A stretch of DNA of 64,000 nucleotides, taken from the IMG/VR virus record IMGVR_UViG_3300006139_000001. One strand, 5' to 3'. Every line of letters starts with the position of its first letter. Position 1 is the first letter of the stretch. Below the pieces are notes generated by a model. The model saw only the letters and a program-made list of their open reading frames with translations, searched no databases and was not told where the DNA came from. The position numbers and the translations under genes were made by a program. Below are positions 13,740 through 62,042 of this stretch, piece by piece. This DNA is from a virus.

Positions 13740-13788
13740 ATTATAACATACTCCGCTCAATCTGTCAATGCTTTTTCTGATTTAATTC
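13740..13788 (-). promoter_or_regulatory. Consensus sigma-70/sigma-A promoter (TTGACA-17-TATAAT, minus strand) preceded by the conserved AATTAAATCAGAAAAA element
   Basis: rc(13763-13768)=TTGACA, 17-nt spacer, rc(13740-13745)=TATAAT. Conserved motif at 13771-13788. A second motif copy (variant) at 13721-13735. Confidence 0.6.
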
Positions 13789-15002
13789 TTCAATTCAATA
13801 AGATAATGGATAGTACATTGTTCTTCCTTATAGACAATTATTTCATCATTACGGAGCATACTTCCTTCGTGGGCATGTAAGCAATTTGCGCCAGGACAAT
13901 TTCTCTGTAGTGCTTCGTAGTTGAAATTATAATACTTGCTATCAAAAGAATACACATCATACGGCTTTCCATATGCGACATCCATTAAAGCCATGAACCC
14001 TGAGTTTGAACTACCTCTTGCCCAATAGCTACCAGATAGACTTGTGTAACCAAGTGACTTTCTTGCCTTTGGCGCATAATAAATACCATAACCAAACATC
14101 TTGCCAGTAATCACAGCATTTGTTGGTTTAAGCATCAAACCACTATTGATAATTGACCACCAGTTCTCATTGCGACTACCATGGAATAGTAACTTAGTAT
14201 CTTTGATATTATTTGCTTTTACAAATTCATCGTAACGTTTCTGAGTTTTAAGATTTTTAACTCTCCACGCTTTATAGAACTTATCTGCACAAGAACCAAG
14301 TGCCGCTTTAATTGTTGCAATGTCGTTGTTGTCGCATTCCTCAAATTCAAGACCAAGCTGTTCAAGGATAGTATAATCACATTTTTCAGTTTCTTTTTGC
14401 TCAGTCTCGTCGATAACCTGATGCTGTACTACCTGACCTCTCATAACGTCAAGAAGGTCTTGCTCTTTATCAATAATCTTCGCAAAATCATCTTTCGAGT
14501 TTGCCAGATAATACTTAACATTACTCATCTTGCGAGGAATCGTAACGAATAACTTTAGTAGAATGTCATTGAATTCGTCAACTGTTTTTGCATCAAGCAA
14601 ACTGGTCAAAATATTCTGCGCTTCATCAACCATTGCTTGTGTAACCTTATTGGATGAAATTGTATAGTTATCACTAATGGCTTTCTTAGCCATACTCTGC
14701 AATCTTTCAACAATCTCTGCGATTACTTTATTTTCGATTTCTCTGTATTTGCTATCAGTCTTAGGCTTCTCAACTTGTATTAAATCTTCAACTAAATCAC
14801 TTTGGTCAACATATCCTTTGCGTATTTTCTCGTTATATTTTGAATCCCATTGGCTCATAGGATATGTTCGGCGTTGTGGACTGCTCCCTACTCTACCGTA
14901 TTCGGCAGTCCAACTATCGCCATTAGGAATCTGTTTGTAATACTTATTGTTATTTGCAGAAGCCGTAACCATAACTAAATAGCGTGGTTTATAATCTGCC
15001 AT
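13782..15002 (-). CDS. Poly(ADP-ribose) polymerase homolog (WGR domain, helical regulatory domain, PARP catalytic domain)
   Basis: N-terminal WGR-like NNKYYKQIPNGDSWTAEYGRVGSSPQ. Catalytic H-Y-E triad intact: LLFHGSR, GKMFGYGIYYAP, RNDEIIVY. 406 aa. Confidence 0.8.
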   Translation of the reverse strand: MADYKPRYLVMVTASANNNKYYKQIPNGDSWTAEYGRVGSSPQRRTYPMSQWDSKYNEKIRKGYVDQSDLVEDLIQVEKPKTDSKYREIENKVIAEIVERLQSMAKKAISDNYTISSNKVTQAMVDEAQNILTSLLDAKTVDEFNDILLKLFVTIPRKMSNVKYYLANSKDDFAKIIDKEQDLLDVMRGQVVQHQVIDETEQKETEKCDYTILEQLGLEFEECDNNDIATIKAALGSCADKFYKAWRVKNLKTQKRYDEFVKANNIKDTKLLFHGSRNENWWSIINSGLMLKPTNAVITGKMFGYGIYYAPKARKSLGYTSLSGSYWARGSSNSGFMALMDVAYGKPYDVYSFDSKYYNFNYEALQRNCPGANCLHAHEGSMLRNDEIIVYKEEQCTIHYLIELKN

Positions 15003-15014: not shown

Positions 15015-15452
15015 TTATAGTACATAAACTACAATCTCGATGTCTGAATCCTCAAACACATCCTCGATGACATCCACAACTCTATCCCAATCCAGCTTAT
15101 CAAGTCCTGCGCCAATTCTTGGCATAGCCAGCTTGGTAATATCCAAATTCTCACACTGTTCTCTCATATCAACAAGAGTTTCGTACAAGGAGTCGTATGT
15201 CGGCTTATGAAAACATCTTGCCTTAGTAACAAGGTTGAATACATTATCAACTAGTAGCGCTTCTCCTACATAGCCATACTTCTCTCCGTCCGCAATGGGA
15301 TAATCTCTGTACAGCTTGAAGCGCATATTGTACACTTCATCAAACTTCTTGGCAATGCCAGCACCAAGGGCAAAATCGCCAGAAATACAATGTGCAAGGT
15401 AATATCCCTGCGGTGCGGTAAACAAATCGCCGTTTTTCTCAGTAAAAGTCAT
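15015..15452 (-). CDS. Macro-domain protein (ADP-ribose binding/hydrolase, MacroD/DarG-like)
   Basis: YYLAHCISGDFALGAGIAKKF and MPRIGAGLD macro-domain motifs. 145 aa. Immediately downstream of the PARP gene. Confidence 0.8.
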   Translation of the reverse strand: MTFTEKNGDLFTAPQGYYLAHCISGDFALGAGIAKKFDEVYNMRFKLYRDYPIADGEKYGYVGEALLVDNVFNLVTKARCFHKPTYDSLYETLVDMREQCENLDITKLAMPRIGAGLDKLDWDRVVDVIEDVFEDSDIEIVVYVL

Positions 15453-30365: not shown

Positions 30366-30752
30366 TCAATCTTTATCAGTGATGCAAAAATTCTTTAAAT
30401 TATCTAGTATATGAAAACGAATAAGGCATAAAATCATTTGGTATATATCTCCTTCGCAACTATCCCATTCAAAATAAACTGAATTTTCTCTTACCATTTC
30501 AATTAGTTCATCAATTTTATCTTCAAAACATTCTGATGCCTCTGCTCCTGTATCGGTTGTTACCCAAGTGTCGTATGCCGTTTCTTCTCGCCTAATTCGT
30601 GGTTCTAACTCAGTTTTAATGCGGAACTCATAATGTTGTCTAGTGTCTTGCTCTTTTTTAAGTTTTATATTTAACTCTCGAATTATATCCCGTTGTTCAT
30701 CAATTTTGTATTTAAGTTGGCGTATGTATTCTTCATATTCTTTTTCGCTCAT
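30366..30752 (-). CDS. Hypothetical protein (coiled-coil N-terminus)
   Basis: 128-aa ORF. Confidence 0.3.
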   Translation of the reverse strand: MSEKEYEEYIRQLKYKIDEQRDIIRELNIKLKKEQDTRQHYEFRIKTELEPRIRREETAYDTWVTTDTGAEASECFEDKIDELIEMVRENSVYFEWDSCEGDIYQMILCLIRFHILDNLKNFCITDKD

Positions 30753-31546
30753 ATTTTACCTCGCAACACTGATAACAAATAGTTATCGAGATAGTTTTCT
30801 AGTATTTTGTCGGCAGATTTCAATATTTCATCATTGCTATTATCAAATAATTCTTCTGCTATTCCGCCACCTATTGCACATAGAGTATCTGTATCACATT
30901 TCAAACTAAAAACATTTCTTATAAATTCTGTGTAGCTATTTGCTTCATAAACACATCTAATTGCAACTGGCACACTCCCTTGGCATGTTTCATTCCAAAG
31001 ATAGTCGTGTTTGATTTCGTTAATGCTTAAAGCTGCACTATATGTATATTTGTCTTTTGGATAATGTGAAATAGTATACTGTAAAATATCATCTCGTGTA
31101 TATCCATTTTTCGCCATCCAAATACACATTGCTGTTATGATTGCACCTTTCAATCCTTCCGGATGGTTATGTGTGCATTCTGCGGATTTTTTAGCATACT
31201 CAATTACTTTATCTATTGTTTTAAAATGGTCTGCGACAAATGATACTCTCATAGCAGAGCCATTACCATAACTTTCATATGGTTTATCTTCTTGTTCATC
31301 AATCCATTCAGCAAAACGACTACCATAACCAACATCACGATATTTCAATCCAAAGAACTGATATGATTGTGCAAATGGAATATTATGTTCAATCGCATAT
31401 TTTGTAGCAATGCTCATTACTGTGTCATCTGTAAACTTGCATTTATCTGATAATAGTGCAGCGGTTTTGTCATTAAAACCTTCTGGTTTTTTGAATTCAT
31501 ATTGAGAACCAATAATGTCGCCAAGTATTGCTCCTTTAATTGCCAT
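30749..31546 (-). CDS. ADP-ribosylglycohydrolase (ARH/DraG family)
   Basis: N-terminal GAILGDIIGSQYEF and the family signature YGNGSAMRVS. 265 aa. Confidence 0.75.
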   Translation of the reverse strand: MAIKGAILGDIIGSQYEFKKPEGFNDKTAALLSDKCKFTDDTVMSIATKYAIEHNIPFAQSYQFFGLKYRDVGYGSRFAEWIDEQEDKPYESYGNGSAMRVSFVADHFKTIDKVIEYAKKSAECTHNHPEGLKGAIITAMCIWMAKNGYTRDDILQYTISHYPKDKYTYSAALSINEIKHDYLWNETCQGSVPVAIRCVYEANSYTEFIRNVFSLKCDTDTLCAIGGGIAEELFDNSNDEILKSADKILENYLDNYLLSVLRGKI

Positions 31547-31563
31547 GTTGTTTACCTCGTAGT

Positions 31564-32605: not shown

Positions 32606-33625
32606 TTAGTGCGCTGCCAAATCAGCTTCGTTCAGTTTCATGACTTCATCAAAGAATTCTTCTCCGACCTGAACCTTGACTCTACGCTCAATACTCTTAC
32701 TCTGTTTCCAAGAAGTAAACGGCATCATATGGTAATAAATTAAGTTTGCAATATGTAATCTATCTGTATAGGGAATGTGTAAGACATCCATATAGAAGAA
32801 GGAATCGTATGAGCCGCAATTCTGGTGGTTATAATAATGGCATTCAGTATCAACCTCACCACGAGAATTCAAATGTGACTTCGTAAACACTTTGCCAATA
32901 TCATGAAGAAGTGCAGCAGTTCTCAGCGCAAGGTTATTAGGAAAATGCTCCCTTACATATTCTGCTGCTTCAAGACAATGACCACCGATAGTTGACTTAT
33001 GATGACTATTCTCCTGGTCAATATCGTTTGCATTAATTTCACCATAAAAGAAGTTATCTAAAGTAAACTTGTTCTTATCAATATCACCATAATTGTAAGC
33101 CAGAACAATATTGTCGAATCCCTCATCCATAGCTGGAGGACTCCAACTCAGATACATCCTCTTAATCGCATCTTCCGGCACTTTGCGCTCTCTATTGCTA
33201 TTCTGCTGAAGGACAACTTCATAAGGAGTAAGAACACAAACGCAAACCTTGTGGCAATCAATATTCTTCAACTCCTGAAGGAATGCTTTGCGACGCTTCT
33301 TGTTAATATTAGTTGCGTCATATACAACATCTTTGCCGTTGCGCAAATCTTCTTTGATACGACGGTGAAGTTCATTAAACAAATCACCGTTATGCTCTTG
33401 GTTATTCTCATCACCATAAAGTTCAACTCTGAGCGCATCGGAAGAATGGATAATAGGTTTTACAAAATCGCCATCTCTCTTGGTTACAAGGGTTTCAGCA
33501 ACAAAAGACTTGCCACTACCGGCTAACCCTTCCATCATAAATAAAACGGGAATTTTATTTGCATTTTCGCACTCATAAACGCTCCTAATAGGAGGGTTTG
33601 CATTTTCAAAATTCTTGTCACTCAT
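32606..33625 (-). CDS. P-loop kinase fused to HD phosphohydrolase domain (polynucleotide kinase/phosphatase-like RNA end-healing enzyme candidate)
   Basis: Walker A MMEGLAGSGKSFVAE N-terminally. C-terminal HD motif AALLHDIGK with upstream His residues. 339 aa. Confidence 0.6.
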   Translation of the reverse strand: MSDKNFENANPPIRSVYECENANKIPVLFMMEGLAGSGKSFVAETLVTKRDGDFVKPIIHSSDALRVELYGDENNQEHNGDLFNELHRRIKEDLRNGKDVVYDATNINKKRRKAFLQELKNIDCHKVCVCVLTPYEVVLQQNSNRERKVPEDAIKRMYLSWSPPAMDEGFDNIVLAYNYGDIDKNKFTLDNFFYGEINANDIDQENSHHKSTIGGHCLEAAEYVREHFPNNLALRTAALLHDIGKVFTKSHLNSRGEVDTECHYYNHQNCGSYDSFFYMDVLHIPYTDRLHIANLIYYHMMPFTSWKQSKSIERRVKVQVGEEFFDEVMKLNEADLAAH

Positions 33626-35337: not shown

Positions 35338-36648
35338 TCATTCTGCATCGTAAATCAGTTCCTCGGCTTCTTCAATGTCAGGAGCATCAGCAGTGTCCTT
35401 AATAATGCCCTCCAGCACCTTGAATGCAAAAGATTTCGTTTTATAAGCCGTAAACTTAGAACGATTGTCGATTCTCACAACTATGCCTTCAGTAACATGA
35501 CTACCATTGGCAAGCGGTTCGGGAATATCAAGATACTGTGCACATCTTTCGTTCAAATCTTCCCAAGTGGTATAAAGGAATTTTTCAAGAAGCGGAACAT
35601 ATTCGCAACCAAGACGGTCACACCATTTAATCGTTTCCTCGGTAGGAATTTCAATGGTAATGCCATCATCATTGGTCATTGTAATGCGATAGATATAGCA
35701 CCTATTTTCGCCAGGATTGCAACCATATGTAAAAATCGTTTCAGCACCATACTGTTTGGTGAACTCTTTATCCTTAACCTTAGAATTGCTACACTTAGGC
35801 ATAATCGGAGTGTTTTCATCAATCCAGCCGACAATTTCACCATACACGGTCATTCCCTTTGGAAGTTTATCAACAAAGAAGTCGTTGTACTTCTTACGGA
35901 ACGCATTAGAACCATAGTAACCACCGTCGTAATCTCTCAAAACAACACGGCGAGTACCACTGATAATCTGAAACTTAGAAGTAACCTTATCCGGCATATG
36001 GAATAACTTCTTCAAAATAGGATTGCGCTTGGTTGTAGTGAATTCCAGGCAGTTGCTTACACGGAAAGAAGTACCATGCAACTTGCGAGTAAGATAGATA
36101 ATATCGTTCTCTCTAAATGCTTGCTGGTTATATGCAAGCTGCTCCGTATCAATATGCTCTGTGAAGAAAGGATAAGAAATCTTCTGGTGTTCCTCTTTCT
36201 TATTCTTAGAAATTTTTACACCACCAGAATGAGTTCTTCGATTACCACGAGGAATATACTTTTTGCAAATCTCATGACCATCAAGAACCGTAATCTGGTC
36301 GCCATCTTTCAGGCTTTCAACATCGGTATACTTCGCCAAAACAGCGACGGGAAGTACCAAACCATCAGATTTCTCACCACGGAGTTTTAATGCTCGAATA
36401 TTTCTCTTGTCGGGTTCAAGATAACCACCGACATTATTACCATTTTCATCTTTCCTGCGAACCAAGTTATTGTCATTTGCAAATTCTTCACTAAGCTGAC
36501 CATCCACAGGAAAATAAATAACTCTATCCCCCGCAGCGTAGCTCATATCGACAATAACGTTGTTCCCGAAAATCTCACAACACTGTAGCCTGTCGGCGTT
36601 AGAATGCTTATGGATTTCTTTAATTGTCGTAATATAAGCACAATACAT
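35338..36648 (-). CDS. ATP-dependent RNA ligase (Rnl2-like nucleotidyltransferase)
   Basis: Motif I LTRKLHGTSFR (KxHGxx, lysine adenylation site as in T4 Rnl2). Motif IV TEGIVVRIDN. Motif V KTKSFAFK. 436 aa. Confidence 0.6.
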   Translation of the reverse strand: MYCAYITTIKEIHKHSNADRLQCCEIFGNNVIVDMSYAAGDRVIYFPVDGQLSEEFANDNNLVRRKDENGNNVGGYLEPDKRNIRALKLRGEKSDGLVLPVAVLAKYTDVESLKDGDQITVLDGHEICKKYIPRGNRRTHSGGVKISKNKKEEHQKISYPFFTEHIDTEQLAYNQQAFRENDIIYLTRKLHGTSFRVSNCLEFTTTKRNPILKKLFHMPDKVTSKFQIISGTRRVVLRDYDGGYYGSNAFRKKYNDFFVDKLPKGMTVYGEIVGWIDENTPIMPKCSNSKVKDKEFTKQYGAETIFTYGCNPGENRCYIYRITMTNDDGITIEIPTEETIKWCDRLGCEYVPLLEKFLYTTWEDLNERCAQYLDIPEPLANGSHVTEGIVVRIDNRSKFTAYKTKSFAFKVLEGIIKDTADAPDIEEAEELIYDAE

Positions 36649-36914: not shown

Positions 36915-36964
36915 ATTATAGCACATTCCGTTCTGTTTGTCAATACTTTTTCTGATTTAATTTA
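36915..36964 (-). promoter_or_regulatory. Consensus promoter TTGACA-17-TATAAT plus conserved upstream element
   Basis: rc(36938-36943)=TTGACA, rc(36915-36920)=TATAAT. Motif at 36945-36964. Confidence 0.55.
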
Positions 36965-38168
36965 TGATTTTTTGTGAATACTCTAATAGTGTATCATGTT
37001 CGTTTGTTAGGCGTTCTTCGATAACAGCAGATAGCAAAGCATTTAACACAACACCAATTTCCTTACCGGAATAACCAACAGCTTTTATGTCCTTTCCATC
37101 TACCTTTAGATGTGATATTTTATAACATTCATTCCTGCACTTTGGCAAACATTCTCCCATACTATCGGCAAATACATAATAGGTTGTAGTGCTATCAAGA
37201 TATGAAGTGCATCTTAGTGCAGAAACAACATCATCTGCTATAGTATCATTATAATTAAGTACACGCCTTATTACAATCTGCGGAACAAGTTCATCGTCGC
37301 TGTAAGCACGAATATTATATGTCCACTTACGAATACCGCAAACATTCTTGATAGTTTTGTTATCAAACTTCAAGCGCTGCAATATCTCTTTTTGCTTATC
37401 TTCATCAAAATTGAACAACAAGGCAATTCTAACATTTGTGGATGTATCAAAAATACCTATCATTGTCATTGCGCTATTAACCATTCTATCTGTAAGTTCT
37501 GGAACAACAACTTGTAGAATTTTACCCATAACAACAGAATAACCATGCGATAGCGCTTTTGTTATTTCTGAATTGATACGCTCTACTGAAATGTTTTTTA
37601 GAAGATTCTTGTTTTCATAAATTGACCGTAATGTTTTTGATTCAATATCATATCCAAGAGTAATTGAAAATCTGATTGCTCTGAGGATTCTAAGTGCGTC
37701 CTCACTAAATCTATCATCTGGTTTTCCAACACATTTAATTACTTTATTCTTTATATCACTTTTACCACCAAAGAAATCAATCAAACCAATAGAAGGATTA
37801 TATGCCATTGCATTGATTGTAAAATCTCTGCGTCTCAAATCCTCTTTTAAGCTATTTGTAAATGTTACTTCTACTGGATGCCTATTATCTTCGTATTCAC
37901 CATCTATTCGATAAGTTGTTACCTCGTACTGTTCATCATCCATAACAATAGTAACCGTTCCATGTTTTAATCCAGTTGGAATGATTTTGTTGTCACTAAA
38001 AACTTCTACAATTTGCTTCGGCAAGGCAGAAGTGCAAATATCCCAATCATGCGGCACTAAGCCTATGATGCTATCACGGACGCATCCGCCAACAACATAG
38101 GCTTCATAACCACATTTATTGAGCTTATTCAAAATGTACTTTGCGTTGTTAGGTAATCTTAATTCCAC
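36957..38168 (-). CDS. tRNA nucleotidyltransferase (class II CCA-adding enzyme / poly(A) polymerase head domain)
   Basis: YVVGGCVRDSIIGLVPHDWDICT (GGxVRD...DxD). 403 aa. Confidence 0.75.
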   Translation of the reverse strand: MELRLPNNAKYILNKLNKCGYEAYVVGGCVRDSIIGLVPHDWDICTSALPKQIVEVFSDNKIIPTGLKHGTVTIVMDDEQYEVTTYRIDGEYEDNRHPVEVTFTNSLKEDLRRRDFTINAMAYNPSIGLIDFFGGKSDIKNKVIKCVGKPDDRFSEDALRILRAIRFSITLGYDIESKTLRSIYENKNLLKNISVERINSEITKALSHGYSVVMGKILQVVVPELTDRMVNSAMTMIGIFDTSTNVRIALLFNFDEDKQKEILQRLKFDNKTIKNVCGIRKWTYNIRAYSDDELVPQIVIRRVLNYNDTIADDVVSALRCTSYLDSTTTYYVFADSMGECLPKCRNECYKISHLKVDGKDIKAVGYSGKEIGVVLNALLSAVIEERLTNEHDTLLEYSQKIIN

Positions 38169-39112
38169 GGATTATTCACTTCCTCCAAGAATTTGGCAAG
38201 TTTACCATCATGATAGAACACCAAATCATTCTCAGTAATAGGTTTACCAAAGTAATGCTTAACAATCTGGTGGAAGATTTCGGCATTCAGACACTTAAAT
38301 TCAACATCGTTAGAGTCGCTGTTATGAATCTTCATATATCCATCAGTGCCTTCAATCTTGTACAATTCAAACATTTCAACCCTTACAAGCTGACCGATAC
38401 CAAGAGGGCAACTATTTACAGACGTTTTCAACTCGGAAAGAGAAAATCCACAGCCTGCTCCATATTCACGAGGGACACTAATAATAATCTCATCTTCACC
38501 TAGACTGAAAACAGAAACACCAGAAATTGTATCCATAATATGCTTGCACAAAATATTCATAAGGTAATGTTCATATCTAATCTGCTTTTTGGGGTTGCAA
38601 GCGCCAAGAATAACCTGGCGAATATATTTGCTATGTATAATATGCTGGTTATCGGTAAACTTAGCCATAAACTGTTCCCAAGTATCTGCTCCATCAAAAA
38701 TCTTGGTAGAGTAATGCTTCATCGCAGAGAAGTTCGCTTTTTTCATATCAATAGATATAAACGCACTACCGTCGTTGTCCTCTACATATACATTCCTCTT
38801 AGAAACAACATACTCAGTTGGGTGGTTATCATTAATAAAAGCGTTGTATTCATCCTTTGCCTTAATAAAGTCAATAATAGAGTCTTTAACTTTATTGTAA
38901 TATTCAAAATAATCCTGCTCATTTGCAAATCGCTGCAATTCAGCACAAAACACATCGAACTTATCTACACAATCGAACAGGATGTCGATGGTTTGCAAAC
39001 GCTCATAAAAATATGGATTATCAAAGACAACAATAGGCAAATTGCTATCTTTGCAGAAACGCTTTTTCAGCGCAATGGAATTCATTACTTCTTCTCTGGT
39101 CATATGTAGCAT
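38159..39112 (-). CDS. Hypothetical protein
   Basis: 317-aa ORF overlapping the CCA-enzyme start by 10 nt (same operon). Confidence 0.3.
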   Translation of the reverse strand: MLHMTREEVMNSIALKKRFCKDSNLPIVVFDNPYFYERLQTIDILFDCVDKFDVFCAELQRFANEQDYFEYYNKVKDSIIDFIKAKDEYNAFINDNHPTEYVVSKRNVYVEDNDGSAFISIDMKKANFSAMKHYSTKIFDGADTWEQFMAKFTDNQHIIHSKYIRQVILGACNPKKQIRYEHYLMNILCKHIMDTISGVSVFSLGEDEIIISVPREYGAGCGFSLSELKTSVNSCPLGIGQLVRVEMFELYKIEGTDGYMKIHNSDSNDVEFKCLNAEIFHQIVKHYFGKPITENDLVFYHDGKLAKFLEEVNNPWN

Positions 39113-39118: not shown

Positions 39119-40171
39119 TTAACCTAAACAAACCTTTTCATTCACACTTGCAACAAAGTCGTTCACCTTATTCATATCAACTCGCTCCGGCAGAATTGTG
39201 TTCTCTTTGTCGTAGTCAAGGCGTTTCTCTAAACCATCAACCATTTCATAGAACTCTGCTGTTGGCTGTCTATTTTCATCAAGATACTCACCATTGCGAA
39301 TTGCCATTAGTAAATCATGTTCTGTCTCTCGATAAGTATTGATTTCGCCTTTTTCAAGAATGTCAAAACACATAAAGTACAATCTTACTAGGTGCATCAT
39401 GTGTTTGCCTAGCTTATCATGCGCAATAGCTTTTTCATTTCTCTTGCCGATTTTACCATAAGCCTTGACAATGGCGTGCATCTCAGACCACATATCCTTA
39501 AAGTCACGCAATGGATAATGTGTAAGGTTTACATCCATAAAGATTTCAGAATCGTAATCCTCTCTGAAGGACTTATCAATAAACAACTTGATTGCATCTT
39601 CTGGATGTTCAAAATACTTCGCCTTATAATCAACGGATGCGTGTTCAATACTTTTTAAGATATTTGCTTCTTGCTGGCTTTGTGAAACGAGACGAGCTGC
39701 TTTATTTTCTAAACGACGCAACTGTGCATTAGCATATCCACCGAATGAATGTACAGCAGCCTGAGACAAAAATAGGCTCTTATTTGCCAATAACTGCTCC
39801 CCCGCATACGAAAGATACAAATAGTGTTCCGACTTTAACCCAAGAATCTCGATTGTGTTTGGATTACATGAGCATAGCAACTTTATAATCTTATCAAACG
39901 AATATACGGTTGTATCTGTTTCCACTTCAACAACCTGCTCAAAATCTTTCCCAATAAAAATGTTACGGCGTGAATTTGTTGCTACACCACGAACATCAAG
40001 GTCAGAATTTTCATTACTTGTACCATAGGCATGACTACCACCAAGACCAAGCAAAATGATATTGCCACCAAGATTTTCGTTATATCTCAAAAAATCGTAC
40101 TCTGTAGATTGTAGCTTTCTCTTTATTTCAGTTAGATTCATTTTCATCCTCCTCGATTGTATACTTGACAT
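39119..40171 (-). CDS. Pol-beta-superfamily nucleotidyltransferase (GS...DxD), first gene of the RNA-repair operon
   Basis: LLGLGGSHAYGTSNENSDLDVRGV nucleotidyltransferase core followed by a ~230-aa helical region. 350 aa. Specific family (CD-NTase, ANT, tRNA-end NTase) not resolvable by eye. Confidence 0.55.
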   Translation of the reverse strand: MSSIQSRRMKMNLTEIKRKLQSTEYDFLRYNENLGGNIILLGLGGSHAYGTSNENSDLDVRGVATNSRRNIFIGKDFEQVVEVETDTTVYSFDKIIKLLCSCNPNTIEILGLKSEHYLYLSYAGEQLLANKSLFLSQAAVHSFGGYANAQLRRLENKAARLVSQSQQEANILKSIEHASVDYKAKYFEHPEDAIKLFIDKSFREDYDSEIFMDVNLTHYPLRDFKDMWSEMHAIVKAYGKIGKRNEKAIAHDKLGKHMMHLVRLYFMCFDILEKGEINTYRETEHDLLMAIRNGEYLDENRQPTAEFYEMVDGLEKRLDYDKENTILPERVDMNKVNDFVASVNEKVCLG

Positions 40172-40303: not shown

Positions 40304-40663
40304 ATGGAATCCATTTTATATCAGAGAATAAAAGCATTATGTGAAAGAAAAGGAATAAGCATTGCAAAATTAGAATCAGAATTAGGATTTGGTAACGCTT
40401 CTATCAAAAAATGGGGTCGTGTCAGCTCTCCATCTGTAGATAAGATAATAAAAGTCGCTGGTTATTTTGACGTTTCGGTAGATTACTTACTTGGTAGGAC
40501 AGATATAGAGGGTTCTATATCTGAGGTAATTGGCGACGAAGATATTATTTCATTCCAAAGAGCAAGACAGAAAATGACTCAAAAGGATAAAGAGCGTATG
40601 ATGCAAATGCTTAAACTTGGCTTTGAGTATGCTTTCTCTGACCAGGAGGGCGATGGTAAATAA
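40304..40663 (+). CDS. XRE-family helix-turn-helix transcriptional regulator (phage repressor-like)
   Basis: HTH LCERKGISIAKLESELGFGNASIKKWG. 119 aa. Confidence 0.75.
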   Translation: MESILYQRIKALCERKGISIAKLESELGFGNASIKKWGRVSSPSVDKIIKVAGYFDVSVDYLLGRTDIEGSISEVIGDEDIISFQRARQKMTQKDKERMMQMLKLGFEYAFSDQEGDGK

Positions 40664-41272
40664 ATGGTGCGATATGTCTATATAAATAATTTGGTGCTTG
40701 ACATTTATGAAATGCTACCAAAGATTCAGTTTCCTCTCGATATTAAAAGTGTTATCAATTATTTCCCTAACTGTAGATATATGTCTTATCAAGATTTTGC
40801 AAAGATTAATAGATGCTCAATCGAAGATGTTATTCAAATTTGCGAAAGCAAATCTGGTTGCACACATTACGACATAATGCAAAATAGATACTTAATTCTT
40901 TGCAATCAGTCAACACAGGACAACAATAACATTGGTAGGCAACGTTGGACTTGTGGGCATGAAATTGGTCATGTGGCTTGTAATCATCATGCTATATCTG
41001 CTTATGAGAAACTTTCAGAAAACAGCCTATTGCAGATTGACAATGCCGAATATGAAATGGAAGCCGATTATTTTGCTGCCACCATATTAGCACCATTTCC
41101 ATTATTTAAGTTGTTTGATGTTAAGTCTGCTATTGACATTCAAAACATATTTGGTCTTTCTACGGAAGCATCTTTGTATAGGTATAAACAATATTTAAAA
41201 TGGCTCAAAACAAGAGTTAAAACTTCCTGGGAAAATGATATGATAAGACTTTATAAGCAGAAGAATATTTAA
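40664..41272 (+). CDS. ImmA/IrrE-family metallopeptidase (anti-repressor protease)
   Basis: HEXXH zinc motif CGHEIGHVACNHH. Immediately downstream of the Xre gene. Confidence 0.7.
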   Translation: MVRYVYINNLVLDIYEMLPKIQFPLDIKSVINYFPNCRYMSYQDFAKINRCSIEDVIQICESKSGCTHYDIMQNRYLILCNQSTQDNNNIGRQRWTCGHEIGHVACNHHAISAYEKLSENSLLQIDNAEYEMEADYFAATILAPFPLFKLFDVKSAIDIQNIFGLSTEASLYRYKQYLKWLKTRVKTSWENDMIRLYKQKNI

Positions 41273-42485: not shown

Positions 42486-43541
42486 TTACTCTCCATTATT
42501 ATTTGTATCAATACCAAACATTATAGAACTGCTATCACCAGACACATACTGCGGAAGCTGACCATTCCACTTTTTAATCCACATTTCCTGTAAAATCTGT
42601 TCAGTAATAGATTTTTCAAGTAGCTCATTAGCCTCTGCTTCTGCCTCTGCTGCAATGACCTTTGCTTCTGCTTCGGCTTCTGCATTGGTCTTTTTAACAG
42701 TAGCGTCTGCCTCTGCTTTTTCGATTGCTCTTTGGTTTTCAATAGCTTGCTGTTCGGCTTCAAGTTGTGCTTGCTGCTTTGCCGCAATAGCCTGGTTATA
42801 CGAATCTTCAAAATCGGCGTTGCTGATAATCACCTTGTTAATATATACAACATTCTCACCATACTTCTCATCGAGAGATTTTTGAAGATTCTCCATAGCA
42901 ATAGGTTCAATAATAGAACGGTTAGTTGCATCTGTATCAGATAGGCTCTTGCTACTTGCCTTTATAGCAGATGCTACAATGCTCTGATTAATAAGTGCAT
43001 CTTTATAATTAGCTACGTTTGCATAAATCCAAGCAGACTTCTCAGGATTAATTTGATATGTGATAATAACTCCATCATAGTAAATAGCGGTTCGCTTAGA
43101 AGTCTCAGACCAAATTTGCCCATCAAATGTAATATCCTGCTGTTTATTATTCACCTTTTCAATAGATTGTATATAAGGTAACTTCCAGTTGAAACCATTT
43201 TGAACAGTAACAGAATCAATCTGTCCAAATGTAGTGCGTACACCAGTGTAACCAGTTGGAATAATTACGATTGCGCAAGAGAATGTAAATAGTACGATAG
43301 CTACCAAAACGCCAACAATAGTGTACTTAGTTTTTACCTTGGTATATGTACCATCGCCATGATACGAATTTCTAACCTTTCTTGCTCGTGCAGAGTTAAT
43401 CATAACTGGAATTACAATAGCTACGACAAAAATTAAGATAGCCACAATTTTCAAAAATACTGTCATTTTTGTTTTAATCTCCTTATCTTGATGATTGAAT
43501 ATCATCTGAATATTTAGTTTTTGAAGTATATATATTATCAA
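42486..43541 (-). CDS. SPFH/band-7 (prohibitin/HflK-like) membrane protein
   Basis: N-terminal TM segments, SPFH core, and a long Ala/Glu/Gln-rich coiled coil (AKQQAQLEAEQQAIENQRAIEKAEADA...). Confidence 0.65.
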   Translation of the reverse strand: MIIYILQKLNIQMIFNHQDKEIKTKMTVFLKIVAILIFVVAIVIPVMINSARARKVRNSYHGDGTYTKVKTKYTIVGVLVAIVLFTFSCAIVIIPTGYTGVRTTFGQIDSVTVQNGFNWKLPYIQSIEKVNNKQQDITFDGQIWSETSKRTAIYYDGVIITYQINPEKSAWIYANVANYKDALINQSIVASAIKASSKSLSDTDATNRSIIEPIAMENLQKSLDEKYGENVVYINKVIISNADFEDSYNQAIAAKQQAQLEAEQQAIENQRAIEKAEADATVKKTNAEAEAEAKVIAAEAEAEANELLEKSITEQILQEMWIKKWNGQLPQYVSGDSSSIMFGIDTNNNGE

Positions 43542-44694
43542 AATACTGCCTTAAATCATTTATTGTACAATTACCAGCAATATCATTGGTATAATTGAGA
43601 TGAGAAACCAAAAGAGAAATTGTTGCATCTTGGATAACACTCTTTGATAAACCAATATCTTTTTGTACTCTGCCCAAGAATTCATCAAGGTCGAATTTTC
43701 CATATCTGATAGATTCTTGAAAATCGTTATGCACATTCGTTTTATCTTCAATGCAAGGATTTATTTCTTCTTTTTGGCACTCAGTAGGAAACGCACCCGC
43801 TCCATGTCTTGTAAAATAAGACCTCGTTATGTAACAGATTTCAACATCAAAACCATATGGCTTAATTCGATTTATGGGGATAAATGAAGTTGTTTTGCTT
43901 GCTGTAATATATGGAAGTGCTTTTTTGTTATCCTCGTCAAGTTCAAGTCCCTGCGCACCCTCAAAAACAATGATGTCATACATAGAGATAAGTTTATCAA
44001 ATGAAATCTGAATAACCTCTCTCTGCATTTGTCTAAGGTCTGACAAATAATGTTTAGCTAAACCATAAGAATTAATAAGTTTTTGATATTCTTCTGGTAT
44101 CTCTGTTATACCATAGCTGGCAAGTCGTTCTGGGAGATACTTATAAGCAATATCATGCAAATAACGAATGATTTCGTAATCTGTTTTGTGCTGTAATTCG
44201 CCGTATTTTAATGAATACCTTCCATCTTCGTATCGCTTTTGTGTTTCCCAAATACCATATCCACAAGAGCCATGCCTATTGTTTGCCCTTGATGTTTCAA
44301 CAATTTGGTTGATAAACATATCGTATGGTGTTGTTACTCTGCATTCCGGCGAAATATAACACTTTGGGAATTCATATCCAAATTCTTTCATTATGGTGCA
44401 GAGTGTTTCTTTTTCTTCAACAAACACCATAGGGTTCACCATAAAGTCTTGGTCAAAGTAAGTATGAGCATTATCAAATGAGCCAGAACCGAAGTGATGG
44501 AAAATGTGTCGAATGCCATTTTTCAATTCTACTGTATGACCTCTTTGACATCCACCATTAAAGAGAATATTTAAACAGAATTTGTTATCTTGATTTGCTT
44601 TTTGTGAAAAGTAGTGAGTTGCAAGACCTTTGCCTTCATCTCCATAATTGCTACCTACTACTACTTTGACCTCAACTTTACTCATATCTATCAC
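43483..44694 (-). CDS. Adenylosuccinate-synthetase-family protein (PurA homolog; candidate PurZ)
   Basis: N-terminal VVVGSNYGDEGKGLATHYF (GDEGKGK P-loop of PurA) and NGGCQRGHTV (PurA QGGHNAGHT region). 403 aa, shorter than bacterial PurA (~430). Confidence 0.7.
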   Translation of the reverse strand: MIDMSKVEVKVVVGSNYGDEGKGLATHYFSQKANQDNKFCLNILFNGGCQRGHTVELKNGIRHIFHHFGSGSFDNAHTYFDQDFMVNPMVFVEEKETLCTIMKEFGYEFPKCYISPECRVTTPYDMFINQIVETSRANNRHGSCGYGIWETQKRYEDGRYSLKYGELQHKTDYEIIRYLHDIAYKYLPERLASYGITEIPEEYQKLINSYGLAKHYLSDLRQMQREVIQISFDKLISMYDIIVFEGAQGLELDEDNKKALPYITASKTTSFIPINRIKPYGFDVEICYITRSYFTRHGAGAFPTECQKEEINPCIEDKTNVHNDFQESIRYGKFDLDEFLGRVQKDIGLSKSVIQDATISLLVSHLNYTNDIAGNCTINDLRQYFDNIYTSKTKYSDDIQSSR

Positions 44695-45548
44695 CAGGAA
44701 ATTTCAGTATTGGATTCAGCAACAACTTCATCCTTTGCGTCAGTAACAATGTTTACAATCGCATTGGAGATATTATTCAAATTAACAACACGAAAATGCC
44801 TTTCATCGAGATATTCACCAAACGATTTCTTAATATGTTCTTCGTGCCAATTATAGCTTGTTTCTCTGTCATCAACGGCAAGATGGTAAATATCAAACTT
44901 AGCACTTGCAGCTTCATACAAAGAATCAGTCTCAACATCACCCTGCAACTTATCACCGGTTACACGGCTTAAAGCACTATGTGGAAGATAGGGATTCAGA
45001 GGTTCATCGCCCATTGTAATGATAATGCCCTTCTTGCCACGTTTCCAGCAATCCAATTTTGTGTGCTTCAAGCCAAAATACCAAGCGCCAGTATAAGACT
45101 CATAGGCATTTCCGCCTCCGCCACCTTCAAAATAAATCTTGTCAAGTTGTTCTGCAATACGAACATCAGATTCAAACTGAGATGCCTGAATTGGTGCAGA
45201 GTCATACGCTAAGTCGCCAATCCCCATAACAAGAAACTCAACATCAGCAACTTTCTCATAGAGCTTGGTCATTACTTCATTCAGCTTTTTAGCAACCTCT
45301 GCCGCAGCGCTTCCCATACTTCCAGTAACATCAAGAGCAAGAATTACAGGAATTGTATTGGGATGCTCTGCGCTATCACAGCACTCACGCACAACATTAT
45401 AAGGGTCTAACTCAGGCTGAATTCTGTGTGATTTAAATAAATCCTGTGCCGAATAGCTAGAATGAAGTGTCCCATCATTAAGAACCGTTCTACCTACAGA
45501 TTTTGAGTAAGAAGAATATGCACTAGTAGTCCAAGAACCGCCACCCAT
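44691..45548 (-). CDS. von Willebrand factor A (vWA) domain protein
   Basis: MIDAS-like ILALDVTGSMGSAA. 285 aa. Confidence 0.5.
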   Translation of the reverse strand: MGGGSWTTSAYSSYSKSVGRTVLNDGTLHSSYSAQDLFKSHRIQPELDPYNVVRECCDSAEHPNTIPVILALDVTGSMGSAAAEVAKKLNEVMTKLYEKVADVEFLVMGIGDLAYDSAPIQASQFESDVRIAEQLDKIYFEGGGGGNAYESYTGAWYFGLKHTKLDCWKRGKKGIIITMGDEPLNPYLPHSALSRVTGDKLQGDVETDSLYEAASAKFDIYHLAVDDRETSYNWHEEHIKKSFGEYLDERHFRVVNLNNISNAIVNIVTDAKDEVVAESNTEISW

Positions 45549-46153
45549 TATTCATCCTCCGTTTCCTTATCACCATCGTCATCATCGGTGTCAAAATCGA
45601 ACATACCGTCAAACATATCGGCAAATCCGTTGCTACCCATCATCATAAAGGGAAGCATAGCACCCATTCCGCCAGATGTATTTCCAGAAGTCATACCGTT
45701 TCCGGTAGCACCCTTCATCATCTCTGACATGAGCATATAAGACATCATCTTATTCATGCCTTTCTTGCCCTTCATAATGTCAGAACCGAACATAGAAACA
45801 ATCTTGCCATAAAAATAGGTGTTACCCATAAACACATGACGCTCTGGCAAAATATTCTCAACCGTAGAATCCTCATAGTTGATAACCTTAATTGTGTCCT
45901 TATCATTAGAAACAACACACTTCGGCTTTCCAGAAACGATGATGATGTCACCAGGTTCAACCTTGTTGGTAGGAATAACAAAGAAGAATTCCTCTCCAAC
46001 GTTGAAAACAAAGTTATTGCAATTCGTCAGTCGGTTAGTTTTAAGATTATAAGTCTTATAACCACCATTGGTTTTAACTGCGATGCCCCCGTTCATGGAG
46101 AGTCTGCACATCCCATTGGCAACCTTGCCAAACATTCCATTAAACATATCCAT
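45548..46153 (-). CDS. Hypothetical protein with Gly/Met-rich region and acidic tail
   Basis: 201-aa ORF. C-terminus DTDDDDGDKETEDE. Confidence 0.3.
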   Translation of the reverse strand: MDMFNGMFGKVANGMCRLSMNGGIAVKTNGGYKTYNLKTNRLTNCNNFVFNVGEEFFFVIPTNKVEPGDIIIVSGKPKCVVSNDKDTIKVINYEDSTVENILPERHVFMGNTYFYGKIVSMFGSDIMKGKKGMNKMMSYMLMSEMMKGATGNGMTSGNTSGGMGAMLPFMMMGSNGFADMFDGMFDFDTDDDDGDKETEDE

Positions 46154-47564: not shown

Positions 47565-49236
47565 TTATGTTACGCTCACTTGCGGAATGGTAAAATTTTC
47601 ACTGTTAATATCATCAAATAATCTATCTAAACCGACTTCAAAAGCGCCGATACCAGAGAAGTAACTACCAACTTTCAAATCATCAAACAAATAAGGCATC
47701 GCTTCGTATAGCTCTTTGAATATGTAATACAGAACATTTGTGACGATAGAGTTACCAGCTTGTTTATATAGCTGGCTATTGCTTACTCCTGCTTTCTCAG
47801 CTCTGTCAAATGCTTCATCTGAAAAACCCATAAGCCTCCAGCATTCTTTTGGCGTTAGTTTTCTAATTCTATAACCAACATCATTATTTTCAATCACTCG
47901 TTTGTCACCCCCGAATCAATGGTTCTAATCGTACCGATTGCATCATCTTTGAATGTTCGTAGACCTTCATCCATACGTCTTTCACATACCATTTTCATAT
48001 CATTTACCTTAACCAACACTTTAGGTTCTCGCTCTCCCCCCTGACAAGTGTTTATTGTTGGAGCAATACCGCCAATAGAATACACTCTGCCACATTGAGG
48101 ATTGCTAAATGTTGGTGTTCCTTTTCTTAAATTTCCTAATTGGATTATCTTGTTCATTATCATTCTCCAAAATCATTATTGAAGTTTTGATACCCAACGC
48201 TGCACATAAGGTAGGTGCAACACCCCCCCGCACCATATACAATGTTGGACTGATGCTTACCAGTTCCTTTTTCTAAAAAACCTACTTCTTCGATATTTCT
48301 CATAATTACTTCTTTGATAAGGCTACAACTCCATTCATACTTTGGTTTCCAAATCCTTTATAGTCTCTGGCAAGAAGTGTATTTGCAACTTCGGTTTCTC
48401 TATCGAAAACGCTACATTGTTTTGAGAAAAGTCCAGGCATTAAATCTGAACCATATCCCATTGATGTCGGTCTACACTTCCTCTCTCCCCCCCGCCCTTA
48501 TGGTGTTGGATATTTCTTTATCAAGTTTGCCACTTGATACAAGGTCATCAATAAGTGCTTTAGCTTGTGGAGTGTTGATATAATATTTCTCGTCAACTTC
48601 ATCTTCAAGAATATCTTTCAGCCTTAGACCATTATCAAACGGTTCTGGGAATTTGAACTTACCGTTATCAAACTCCTTCAGAATAATAATCAGATATACA
48701 CGTTCACGGTTTTGTGGAATACCGTAGTCTTTTGCATTTAACACCTGGAAATATGTATTATAGCCGTACTCGTGCAGCTCACCTAAAAACATCTGGAATG
48801 TCTCTTTGAACTGTTTACCGACGATGTTTTTGACATTTTCATAGATACCCCATTTAGGTTTATTGGCTCTAATAATTCTGAGCCATTCAACAAGTAACGA
48901 ACTTCTTGTTTTGTCAAGGCTCTCGCTGCCGCAATTCGGGCATTGATGTCTCTTTGAATAATGCACGGTGAGTGGATTGTATTCGTGACCACAATTAGAA
49001 CACTGCCACTTGCTACCTGCTTGCTTACCGGCTACTGAGAAATCTTGACACGGACTACCGCCACAAATCATATTAAATGGTTTTAGACTTGTCTCATCTA
49101 CTTTTGTTATATCTCCAAGATTTAAGGAATCATCAACACCATGCACAGCGCAGTAACTTTTCACAGCGTACTTATCAAACTCACAAAAATTCGCAAGTTC
49201 ATAACCTTTTCTTGAAGTGCTGTTTTTATTATCCAT
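47565..49236 (-). pseudogene. C5-cytosine DNA methyltransferase coding region broken into at least 3 ORFs (48472-49236, 47894-48163, 47565-47897) with G7 tracts at the breaks, and motif I located after motif X
   Basis: 48472-49236: PCQ (GGSPCQDFSVAGK), ENV, QNRERVYLI, starting right after the motif-I position (GYELANFCEFDKYA). 47894-48163: GRVYSIGGIAPTINTCQGG. 47565-47897: motif X RKLTPKECWRLMGFSD...AGNSIVTNV, then in frame motif I LKVGSYFSGIGAFEVGL. Minus-strand G7 tracts at 48487-48493 and 48223-48229. A -1 shift at each restores MTase-like sequence (…ANTLLARDYKG…, …IVYGAGGVAPTLCAALG…). Confidence 0.6.
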
Positions 49237-49924: not shown

Positions 49925-50989
49925 TTACACAATTTCCTTGCATTTTTTCTCCCACGGAAATACACCATTACCAAAGTGACCAAACATTGCAGTAGGATAG
50001 TACTTAATATCTTTCAAATTAAGGTCACGAATAATATTAGATGGAGCGCATTCAGGATAAACCCAGTTAAGGTCAGTAATATTACCTTTGTCGGTTCTTA
50101 CATAAATACCAAGTGGGACATCTAAGCCAATGGCATAAGATAGCTGGATTTCGCACCAGCTAATATCTGGTTTAGATTCAAGACATTCAATAGCAAGCTG
50201 TCTTGCTTTGTATGCGGCACTACGGTCAACCTTTGTCGGGTCTTTACCGCTAAAGGCGCCTCCACCAACATTTGCAAACGATTGGTAATTATCAACCACA
50301 ATCTTTCTGCCGGTCAGACCTGCATCACCATCAAAACCTCCAATAAGGAACTTACCAGTGGGATTGATATGAAAAGATTCAATATTATCAATGTCATATT
50401 CGTGACAAACCTCAGTTACAAAGTCAATTAGAATCTTATCGGTTTCTTCTCGTTCAACCTCTGTATTCTGATAAGAGATAGTGAAGTCTTTAATACCAAT
50501 CAGTTTTTTGTCATTATCGTAAATACCAGTAATTTGAGCTTTACCATCTGGCAAAAATCTTTTATCATTGTGACATAGTGCATCATAAAACTTTGATAAT
50601 GTCTGAAGGATAACCATTGCTTTGGGTAAATACTGTGGCGTTTCTCTGCAAGCATAGCCGAACATCATTCCCTGGTCGCCAGCTCCACCAGTATCTACAC
50701 CCTGCGCAATATCTGGCGACTGCATTCCAATATTGTTGATAATCTCATAATTAGTCTTATAACCAATATCACGGAGAACAGATTTGACTACCGTTTCTAT
50801 GTTCACGTTTGCCGCCGAAGTGACTTCACCTGTGATAAAGATTTTACCCTTGCCACCAACTACTTCAATTCCGCAACGACTATTCTTATCCTGTTCAAGA
50901 AACGCATCAAGCAAAGCATCGCTAATCTGGTCGCAAACTTTGTCTGGATGTCCTCTAAACACAATCTCATTACTGTAAAAATAACTCAT
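49925..50989 (-). CDS. metK: S-adenosylmethionine synthetase
   Basis: MetK hallmarks GHPDKVCDQISDA, GAGDQG, GGGAFSGKDPTKVDRSAAY. 354 aa (somewhat shorter than bacterial MetK). Confidence 0.8.
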   Translation of the reverse strand: MSYFYSNEIVFRGHPDKVCDQISDALLDAFLEQDKNSRCGIEVVGGKGKIFITGEVTSAANVNIETVVKSVLRDIGYKTNYEIINNIGMQSPDIAQGVDTGGAGDQGMMFGYACRETPQYLPKAMVILQTLSKFYDALCHNDKRFLPDGKAQITGIYDNDKKLIGIKDFTISYQNTEVEREETDKILIDFVTEVCHEYDIDNIESFHINPTGKFLIGGFDGDAGLTGRKIVVDNYQSFANVGGGAFSGKDPTKVDRSAAYKARQLAIECLESKPDISWCEIQLSYAIGLDVPLGIYVRTDKGNITDLNWVYPECAPSNIIRDLNLKDIKYYPTAMFGHFGNGVFPWEKKCKEIV

Positions 50990-53180: not shown

Positions 53181-54089
53181 TTAATTTATATATGTAAAGA
53201 TATATGCTATTACATCAACTGTCCAGCCATCTCCAATCAAGTCTGCTGCATCTTTTTCCGAAAGATTCTTTATATACTTTTCAGGAATAGTTTGTAATTT
53301 TGCTCGTTCCTCTTTCCAAAGGTATCTTGCACAATCAAATACATTTCCACTGTAATTATCAAATATCTCTGCTTTTGGTTTTGCGTTCCCAACAACTCTT
53401 TCAAACTCTTTCTTGCATTCTTCAAATTTCTCTTTGTTTGGGAATATCATCGTTGAAAAAGCCTTGTAAAACCATCTGTAAAACCTTTTGCTTGAAGTCC
53501 AATTACAACCATTGTAATAACCGTGAGAATCATTCTTCATTAAACAGCGAGATTTTTTATATGGGTAATAACCTTCAATTAAAATGTCGTTCACACTTAC
53601 ATCTTTTGTTGGAAAATTATCCACTGAAAAAGGTATGTTCGTCCAATAAAGTCTATCTCTCATTTGTGCGGTTATCTGTTTAGAATTTATACGAACCGGT
53701 TTTACTCCAAGCGATTCGGTTATAACTTGTTCGTCATCTTTCTTCATAATGACATTTTCCATTAGGAAATATCTTGGATTAACCTCATGTAAAACTCTAT
53801 TACATTCTAAAAACAAACCAGACCGAATCCTATCTTCAAGACCAATTCTTCTTTCTATTTTCATTGCTCTGCTAAAACTTTGGCAAGGAGAACCGAACAT
53901 TACCAAATCAAATGTTTCTTCAAACTTCCCAAAATCAGTGAATAAAATGCCATCTTTGTATTGAACATTATTTACATCTCCAATATGTATCGTGTCTGGA
54001 AAATTTTCTTTGGTCGTCCTAATTGCTATTTCTTTTATTTCAGAAGCATAATACTTCTTTACTTTGATGCCGACCTTTTCAAGCGCCAT
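53181..54089 (-). CDS. C5-cytosine methyltransferase-like protein lacking a translated motif I
   Basis: PCQ (MFGSPCQSFSRA), ENV (FLMENVIM), QxRxR (QMRDRLY), and a motif-X-like C-terminus. The open frame upstream of ATG 54089 encodes a degenerate motif I (ITVLSLCDGISCGR) but has no start codon back to the stop at 54171-54173. Confidence 0.55.
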   Translation of the reverse strand: MALEKVGIKVKKYYASEIKEIAIRTTKENFPDTIHIGDVNNVQYKDGILFTDFGKFEETFDLVMFGSPCQSFSRAMKIERRIGLEDRIRSGLFLECNRVLHEVNPRYFLMENVIMKKDDEQVITESLGVKPVRINSKQITAQMRDRLYWTNIPFSVDNFPTKDVSVNDILIEGYYPYKKSRCLMKNDSHGYYNGCNWTSSKRFYRWFYKAFSTMIFPNKEKFEECKKEFERVVGNAKPKAEIFDNYSGNVFDCARYLWKEERAKLQTIPEKYIKNLSEKDAADLIGDGWTVDVIAYIFTYIN

Positions 54090-54376: not shown

Positions 54377-54739
54377 TTATTCTTGCCATTCGCTGCAATC
54401 AAAACCATTATCCTTCAACCAATTAGCAACTAAATGTCTGTGGCAAAAATCAGATGGTTTTTCATAACATACCAAGGCAATATCTTTTGTATCTGCCATA
54501 CCAAGAAGTTCTTTTACAACTTCTTTAGCGCTCAAAGTGTTTAATACCAATTTGTCATAGTTCTCAATATAATAATCATTGTCGTGGGTTTCTTTCCACA
54601 TCTTAAAGAATTCCCATTTTGGAGCTAACTTCTTATAAGACAAACCGGTATAAAACTTTGGCAAGCCACCACAAATTGCGATTGGTGTTATTGTCCCTGG
54701 CAACTTCCTTAATTTTGCAAAGTACGTTGTATAAATCAT
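54377..54739 (-). CDS. DUF488-like protein
   Basis: LVCYEKPSDFCHRHLVANWL pattern. 120 aa. Confidence 0.35.
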   Translation of the reverse strand: MIYTTYFAKLRKLPGTITPIAICGGLPKFYTGLSYKKLAPKWEFFKMWKETHDNDYYIENYDKLVLNTLSAKEVVKELLGMADTKDIALVCYEKPSDFCHRHLVANWLKDNGFDCSEWQE

Positions 54740-62039: not shown

Positions 62040-62042
62040 ATA

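Follow-up and report, generated by a model that had tools for sequence, protein, structure and literature searches.

We analyzed a 64,000-nt stretch of viral DNA (IMG/VR record IMGVR_UViG_3300006139_000001; hereafter, the window), focusing on a gene for a predicted ADP-ribosylhydrolase (ARH). The open reading frame (ORF) that the initial annotation had described from the sequence alone is present, as are the two motifs quoted there: GAILGDIIGSQYE at residues 5-17 and YGNGSAMRVS at residues 93-102 of the product. The ORF starts with ATG. The overlap between its stop codon and the start codon of the next ORF, which encodes a 128-aa protein, suggests translational coupling of the two. The neighbors of the ARH gene in the window are lipoprotein-like, coiled-coil, and YunG-like ORFs and a kinase-HD gene. 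The coordinates of these and other features are collected in Table 1.

Membership of the ARH family was assessed via profile searches. The Pfam model ADP_ribosyl_GH (PF03747), which the initial annotation had proposed as a check, matched the protein with an E-value of 1.3e-26 and 94.3 bits (cut-off 26.2), the match spanning residues 2-230 of the protein and positions 2-275 of the 287 in the profile. PHROG 6572, annotated as "ADP-ribosylglycohydrolase", matched at 7.8e-39. Both matches are far past what chance could produce, and the protein is a member of the family. The outcome named in the initial annotation as refuting it, a lack of any match to an ARH model, did not occur.

The residues that form the catalytic and metal-binding site of ARH enzymes were located at E17, T39-D40-D41, T125-H126, and D218-T219-D220-T221. 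In an alignment with 25 homologues (51-87% identity), G9, D10, G13, S14, and E17 were invariant, as were the metal-site residues T39-D40-D41 and D218, D220, and T221; in the TH motif, H126 was invariant and T125 nearly so. The motifs align with FYE (SFYE), YTDDT, TH, and GGDTDT of ARH3, which make up its two-metal site and contain the catalytic Glu. E17 is aligned to the Glu of the ARH3 SFYE motif, that is, the catalytic residue E41 in the ARH3 numbering, which was taken from the titles of PDB entries (E41A, D77A, D314A).

The structure predicted by AlphaFold2 was all-helical, with 14 helices, a predicted local distance difference test score of 92.5 and a predicted template modelling (TM) score of 0.92. 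When this model was compared to the PDB with Foldseek, 58 matches were obtained at E ≤ 0.001, and the 50 matches listed were all of ARH fold (probability 1.00, TM-score 0.61-0.75). The best was ARH3 (E-value 2e-8, TM-score 0.71), followed by MJ1187, Tri1, and DraG. A dN/dS ratio of 0.066 relative to the closest homologue (87% identity) indicates strong purifying selection. The window thus contains a real, intact gene of ARH fold, and because its catalytic residues are conserved, the product is predicted to be enzymatically active.

Next, we compared the protein with the characterized members of the family. A phmmer comparison with ARH3 gave an E-value of 3e-12. When a profile of the window ARH and its relatives was searched against proteins of solved structure, ARH3 scored best (7e-22), followed by MJ1187 (1e-12), Lmo0067 (7e-12), ARH1 (1e-5), DraG (1e-3), and Tri1 (2e-3); the NCBIfam Tri1 model matched with just 20 bits, below its cut-off of 490. 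The label "DraG-like" given to the gene in the initial annotation therefore needs replacing: ARH3 is far closer in these scores, and "ARH3-like" fits better. By the same token, arginine-linked ADP-ribose is the less likely option for the substrate. DraG, which acts with DraT, and Tri1, which acts with Tre1, share the fold and the metal-site motifs of the window ARH (Foldseek TM-score about 0.7). They are, however, far more distant in sequence and are Arg-specific enzymes paired with a cognate ADP-ribosyltransferase (ART), whereas the window ARH has no adjacent ART.

ARH3 itself (ADPRHL2/ADPRS), the vertebrate hydrolase of ADP-ribosylserine, poly(ADP-ribose) (PAR), and O-acetyl-ADP-ribose (OAADPr), is the best match in both sequence and structure, and the two proteins have the GD..G..(Y/F)E, TDDT, YGNG(G/S)AMR, TH, and DTDT motifs in common. 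The window ARH, in contrast, has a prokaryotic or viral origin and lacks the full-length ARH3 architecture. ARH3 is about 350-363 aa long, and the 265-aa window protein is without roughly 85 residues of its peripheral helices; the stretch of ARH3 from about residue 190 to 258 has a counterpart of only about 36 residues in the window protein. Given this difference in length and an identity of ~21%, we classify the window protein by its sequence as ARH3-like and not as an ARH3 orthologue.

Table 1. Features of the 64,000-nt window. Positions refer to the whole window; strand and evidence are given where available.
Feature	Position	Strand	Evidence or remark
Diversity-generating retroelement, complete	11..3437		
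ORF carrying the variable repeat at its 3' end	11..790		
Variable repeat	642-783		
Accessory ORF	888..1727		
Template repeat	1782-1923		142 nt
Reverse transcriptase	2232..3437		RVT_1 1e-13; LGSQISQ and YMDD motifs
Large serine recombinase	4892..6502		Resolvase, Recombinase, zinc ribbon, DUF4368 domains
PARP, WGR and catalytic domains	13782..15002	-	Pfam
DarG/TARG1-like divergent macro domain	15015..15452	-	NCBIfam DarG 4.4e-12; PADLOC DarG 3.9e-15
128-aa coiled-coil-like ORF 3' of ARH	30366..30752	-	ATG overlaps ARH stop codon as ATGA
ARH coding sequence, 265 aa	30749..31546	-	ORF, PF03747, PHROG 6572, motifs, AlphaFold2, Foldseek, dN/dS
GAGGT ribosome-binding site, 7 nt 5' of ARH ATG	31554..31558	-	Direct reading (+ strand acctc)
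RNA-repair suite	32606..43541		Gene content in text
Pnkp-like P-loop kinase (AAA_33) fused to HD phosphohydrolase	32606..33625	-	AAA_33 8.9e-21; HD 5.6e-5; NCBIfam bacterial Pnkp kinase region 4.5e-15
RNA ligase	35338..36648	-	Pfam RNA_ligase 1.3e-9; PHA02142 OB domain
Sigma-70-type promoter match upstream of RNA ligase gene	36915..36943	-	TTGACA-17-TATAAT with TG extension, 12/12
CCA-adding enzyme	36957..38168	-	Pfam
317-aa protein	38159..39112	-	No Pfam match
RlaP nucleotidyltransferase	39119..40171	-	Pfam
XRE-HTH and M78 peptidase pair	40304..41272	+	Divergent
Adenylosuccinate-synthetase-like gene (403 aa) and two conserved proteins (285, 201 aa)	43483..46153		
C5-cytosine methyltransferase sequences	47565..49236, 53181..54089		
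C-terminal end of C5 methyltransferase	47565..47897		
N-terminal part of C5 methyltransferase	48472..49236		Zinc-ribbon insertion
S-adenosylmethionine synthetase	49925..50989		
DUF488 gene	54377..54739		Active N3a subclade
NAD-dependent DNA ligase LigA	54743..56743	-	Pfam adenylation domain 2e-46; OB, BRCT
SLOG (YAcAr) gene	57475..57870		NAD/ADP-ribose network
Formate/nitrite-transporter-family membrane protein	59652..60266		
Nine transfer RNA genes	61965..62993	-	ARAGORN and Rfam agree

The distribution of this type of ARH was estimated in several sequence collections. A search of 5.8 billion proteins yielded >7,700 relatives, and the best 120 of these all had a single domain and a length of about 259-286 aa. 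In IMG/VR, 465 viral contigs carried a relative, mostly gut phages of 130-180 kb. Relatives with about 40-50% identity were present in at least 592 bacterial species of a species-representative genome set, including Clostridia, Bacteroidota, Synergistota, Desulfobacterota, and other groups. Among GenBank phages the gene is rare, with eight carriers in 50,697 records: a 176-kb fecal phage and a 7.3-kb phage fragment (both from human fecal samples), three phages of 462-735 kb, and two Porphyromonas phages plus Bacteroides phage Versailles, in which the gene is already annotated as ADP-ribosylglycohydrolase. The last three are temperate phages of 48-58 kb in which the ARH gene is the last of the early block, and they carry neither PARP nor RNA-repair genes. 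A megablast search with window positions 28000-36000 matched no GenBank phage, so no close cultured relative is at hand; the nearest PolIII-alpha sequences were those of Clostridioides phage pCD1602_4 (50% identity) and of ~160-kb Bacillus siphophages (45%).

Carriage of the family by phages is thus already known, and the window ARH is a further member. In their survey of viral NAD/ADP-ribose systems, Iyer et al. (2022) reported ARH domains, termed "ARG", in about 5% of jumbo phages (PMC9503650); the window protein is a direct member of this group (PHROG 6572), in stand-alone form and with no ART next to it. The domains were rare in that survey, whereas the compact subtype described here occurs in the 465 IMG/VR contigs and in small Bacteroidota phages; a link to RNA-repair genes was not described there. 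For phage ARG domains unpaired with an ART, direct evidence of activity is lacking according to the same survey (PMC9503650).

The genes around the ARH were compared across 90 loci with 10-kb flanks, which formed 41 groups at 80% ARH identity. The 128-aa ORF that overlaps the window ARH had no Pfam match above the cut-off and was kept only in the closest relatives, with homologues at three of the 90 loci. In the Porphyromonas and Bacteroides phages, the end of the ARH gene is likewise overlapped by a small ORF, of ~108 aa (positions 5770-6096 of locus L331 and 5761-6084 of locus L332). The two ~108-aa ORFs share homology (30% identity, E-value 2e-8) and may encode a lineage-specific partner of the ARH. 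They are unrelated to the 128-aa ORF, which was rejected as a conserved partner, and to any other neighbor of the window ARH.

The initial annotation had grouped the ARH with a PARP, a macro domain, and an NAD-dependent LigA into an unusually complete NAD/ADP-ribose toolkit. All of these genes are indeed in the window, the ARH gene lying 15.3 kb from that of the macro domain, for which the Pfam Macro model gave 21.4 bits, just under its cut-off of 22. A Pfam scan of about 90 window ORFs added just the SLOG (YAcAr) gene and a DUF488 gene beside LigA to this network, and found no KptA/Tpt1, 2H, Nudix, sirtuin, or NAD-salvage gene. The co-occurrence therefore stands, but the genes do not form a demonstrated unit. 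In a sample of 80 PARP loci from related phages, the macro domain adjoined PARP at 77, and PARP-macro is thus a genuine unit, from which the ARH is separate. LigA was found ≤6.5 kb from PARP at 32 of these 80 loci, in 21 of them directly beside the pair in the order LigA-macro-PARP, as part of a row that also includes PolIII-alpha. Together, LigA, macro, and PARP look like a putative phage counterpart of a minimal PARP2/3-type DNA-break module.

These data bear on the possibility that the ARH is a dedicated partner of the PARP. The WGR-PARP would write mono- or poly-ADP-ribose on proteins or on DNA or RNA ends, and the DarG-like macro domain and the ARH would erase different linkages. ARH3 is an established eraser of Ser-ADP-ribose made by PARP1/2 and of terminal PAR units, and the three genes are all present in the window. 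ARH and PARP were found on one contig in at least six related phages, 20-30 kb apart. In one sub-lineage only (nine near-identical contigs), the gene order is PolIII-alpha, LigA, macro, PARP, and then, 2.6-5 kb farther downstream, the ARH. An unrelated 462-kb phage (LR756500.1) carries the two genes 12.6 kb apart. The tight PARP-macro pair, however, does not include the ARH, and neither a PARP nor a macro domain was found within 10 kb of the ARH among the 90 ARH loci. Many PARP-positive contigs >100 kb were missing from the list of ARH carriers, and vice versa. No PARP match was obtained in seven of the eight GenBank carriers, the 48-58-kb temperate phages included, and the bacterial ARHs have no neighboring PARP. 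We therefore regard the toolkit as a co-occurrence in large genomes, given the variable position of the ARH and the PARP that is mostly not nearby, and a dedicated partnership with the PARP as unlikely. Nor was a cognate ART gene found adjoining the ARH, either in the window or at the 90 related loci; the sole ART of the window is the PARP, 15 kb away. The further suggestion of the initial annotation, that the phage may reverse more than one kind of ADP-ribosylation, can reasonably be inferred from established enzymology.

The commonest neighbor of ARH homologues in related phages was a tRNA-repair trio of RlaP, the 317-aa protein, and the CCA-adding enzyme. In the window, the gene is part of a same-strand string that runs from the promoter match through the RNA ligase and the kinase-HD gene, the latter encoding a candidate RNA end-healing enzyme. 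The promoter match was the sole 12/12 match in positions 28000-37000, although promoter-like sites overall were not above the number in shuffled sequences (36 versus a mean of 42), and judging from its sequence, it may start the string including the ARH, 5.4 kb downstream. De novo clustering of neighbors showed that RlaP (13 of the 41 groups), the CCA-adding enzyme (13), and the 317-aa protein (nine) were the top neighbors of the ARH, in at least four arrangements and on either side of it. At other loci, an RNA ligase and a Pnkp-like kinase were found within 3-6 kb of the ARH, and LigA directly adjoined it in four groups.

Such neighbors raise the possibility of a role in end healing, in which the ARH would strip ADP-ribose caps from the 5'- or 3'-phosphate ends of cleaved transfer RNA (tRNA) or other RNA, or of DNA, before the repair enzymes act. 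Such a role is biochemically plausible since ARH-type enzymes remove ADP-ribose from 5'- and 3'-phosphate ends of RNA and DNA in vitro (PMC11833690) and RlaP adds nucleotides to damaged RNA 3' ends (PMC12776372); 2'-OH-linked ADP-ribose put on RNA by RhsP2 is not removed by ARH-type enzymes (PMC11833690). In a scenario that we hold to be improbable, caps written by a host ART defense or by the phage WGR-PARP would be removed by the ARH, after which the kinase-HD protein, RNA ligase, RlaP, and CCA-adding enzyme (or LigA) could reseal the ends. ADP-ribose removal would then be an extra step in phage tRNA repair.

The reciprocal count was less favorable. The ARH was found ≤3 kb from RlaP at just 13 of 80 RlaP loci, all of them from the closest relatives of the window, whereas the 317-aa protein and the CCA-adding enzyme were present at 56-58 of the 80. 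The ARH is therefore probably not a core part of this trio, whose proximity to the ARH is confined to one lineage and absent in bacteria and small phages, both of which carry the ARH without RNA-repair genes. As a side observation, the 317-aa protein was almost always encoded between RlaP and the CCA-adding enzyme (56 of the 80 loci). In other phages, RlaP was also found near PARP-macro, which suggests that modules (PARP-macro, LigA, the RlaP trio, and the RNA ligase-kinase pair) are shuffled inside one auxiliary region, and the proximity to the ARH may be a regional effect. That no KptA/Tpt1, 2H, or Nudix gene was found among the scanned window ORFs also weighs against end healing. Because of the weak reciprocal test, we keep end healing as a minority reading and judge it improbable.

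We also inspected the bacterial loci of the subfamily. In Bacillota, the commonest neighbor of the ARH was a MacroD-type macro protein (330-385 aa) encoded 1.2-2.1 kb upstream, either next to the ARH gene or separated from it by a single small gene. Such a gene was present at 11 of about 70-80 bacterial loci (11/69 as computed). Its product matched Pfam Macro at 1e-35, and its best PDB matches were OAADPr deacetylases. The compact ARH subfamily is thus tied to ADP-ribose chemistry in cells too. These operons, like the phage genome, combine two erasers of different folds, the ARH being of the same compact subfamily as that of the window (40-50% identity). The arrangement in the phage is different: the Bacillota macro protein is MacroD-type and encoded immediately upstream, whereas the phage macro domain is DarG-like, 15 kb off, and paired with PARP.

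OAADPr-deacetylase-type neighbors are among the reasons to consider a small-molecule hydrolase acting on OAADPr, ADP-ribose-1''-phosphate, alpha-NAD+, or an ADP-ribose-based immune signal and on no macromolecular adduct. Hydrolysis of OAADPr by ARH3 is cited in PMC9503650, and the window has a SLOG (YAcAr) gene, a domain linked to ADP-ribose derivatives by Iyer et al. (PMC9503650). The same authors, however, took phyletic patterns as an argument for a preference of viral ARH domains for adducts on macromolecules (PMC9503650, sections 3.4.2 and 3.7.2), and the scan of the window turned up no gene for a sirtuin, TIR, or KptA to generate these compounds. We consider a function limited to small molecules very improbable.

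Some further features of the bacterial loci were recorded. In the closest homologues among Oscillospiraceae, a conserved protein of 137-177 aa was encoded 3' of the ARH (seven loci); the phage loci lack it. A 165-aa ORF downstream of bacterial ARHs had no homologue at the phage ARH loci. The closest bacterial ARH loci were rejected as prophages of the window's phage family, having one weak match (24% identity) in common with it. Some ARHs from Lachnospiraceae and Clostridium (locus L133, positions 7926-9284, and locus L164, positions 5555-6889) possessed an extra C-terminal domain of ~190 aa, and they are encoded downstream of a MacroD-type macro gene.

We conclude that the window ARH is probably a competent divalent-metal-dependent ADP-ribosylhydrolase of a compact ARH3-like subfamily found in gut anaerobes and their phages, and that it functions as a stand-alone eraser. 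The stand-alone character is suggested by the variable position of the gene, the small PARP-less phages, the seven of eight GenBank carriers without PARP, and the lack of an adjacent ART. ARH-type enzymes are known to remove ADP-ribose from serine, PAR, OAADPr, and 5'- and 3'-phosphate nucleic acid ends (PMC11833690; PMC9503650). The gene would be a movable accessory gene of a Clostridia-type phage of roughly 130-180 kb, expressed within an early or auxiliary gene string. Like ARH3 and other ARH enzymes, its product would cleave the bond at C1'' of ADP-ribose, releasing free ADP-ribose and restoring the unmodified target. The likeliest linkage would be O-linked (serine, ribose-ribose, or acetyl) or phosphate-linked (nucleic acid ends), in preference to arginine-linked. 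The marks removed could be those of host ARTs, in a counter-defense role, or secondarily those of the phage's own PARP; the ARH would not be a dedicated partner of the PARP-macro pair.

Several points weigh against this conclusion. The specificity of ARH3 is not transferable, given the ~21% identity and the missing residues noted above, and we know of no characterized member of the compact (~260 aa) subfamily. The co-residence of PARP and ARH in the phage family (the contigs with the genes 20-30 kb and 2.6-5 kb apart) and in the unrelated 462-kb phage leaves some probability for a link to the phage PARP; this co-residence was judged from samples capped at 80 loci per search. The ARH matched no PADLOC defense model, and PADLOC together with a literature search yielded no known defense system that the ARH would counter.

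In the conflict between phages and their hosts, ADP-ribosylation is an active field, affecting proteins, DNA, and RNA, as illustrated by DarT, CmdT, Tre1, and the T4 proteins Alt and Mod. Phage erasers of the macro and NADAR types have been studied; to our knowledge, stand-alone phage ARHs have not. The present result is a routine family assignment and no new kind of system. Since the compact ARH3-like subfamily is very abundant, its carriers among gut phage contigs and among bacterial species each numbering in the hundreds, the substrate of one member would annotate thousands of genes.

The rest of the window contained a number of other features. The RNA-repair suite comprises the kinase-HD protein, RNA ligase, CCA-adding enzyme, 317-aa protein, RlaP, and an SPFH/Band-7 protein, with a divergent pair of XRE-helix-turn-helix (HTH) and M78 peptidase genes embedded in it. 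An adenylosuccinate-synthetase-like gene travels with two conserved proteins, and the same trio was seen in related phages (loci L006, L007, L009, L012, L018, and L019). The synthetase-like protein scored better with PurA models (99 bits) than with the PurZ model (33 bits, N-terminus only); it may still act in a PurZ-like way toward 2-aminoadenine DNA.

The diversity-generating retroelement at the start of the window is complete. Its template repeat and the 3' end of the first ORF share 92% identity, and all 11 mismatches between the variable and template repeats correspond to adenines in the template repeat. The reverse transcriptase gene lies downstream, with an accessory ORF in between. The large serine recombinase that follows points to a temperate or integrative element.

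The C5-cytosine methyltransferase sequence is distributed over several adjacent ORFs, with its N-terminal part and its C-terminal end in different ones, as may result from a split or an interruption of the gene. A separate intact C5 methyltransferase, an MT-A70 gene, a Dam-like gene, and an S-adenosylmethionine synthetase are also encoded. The nine tRNA genes are those for Glu, Trp, Pro, Gly, Leu, Ser, Ile (UAU), Ala, and Arg (UCU). LigA is flanked by the DUF488 and SLOG/YAcAr genes, and near it is encoded a membrane protein of the formate/nitrite transporter family, an unusual phage cargo.

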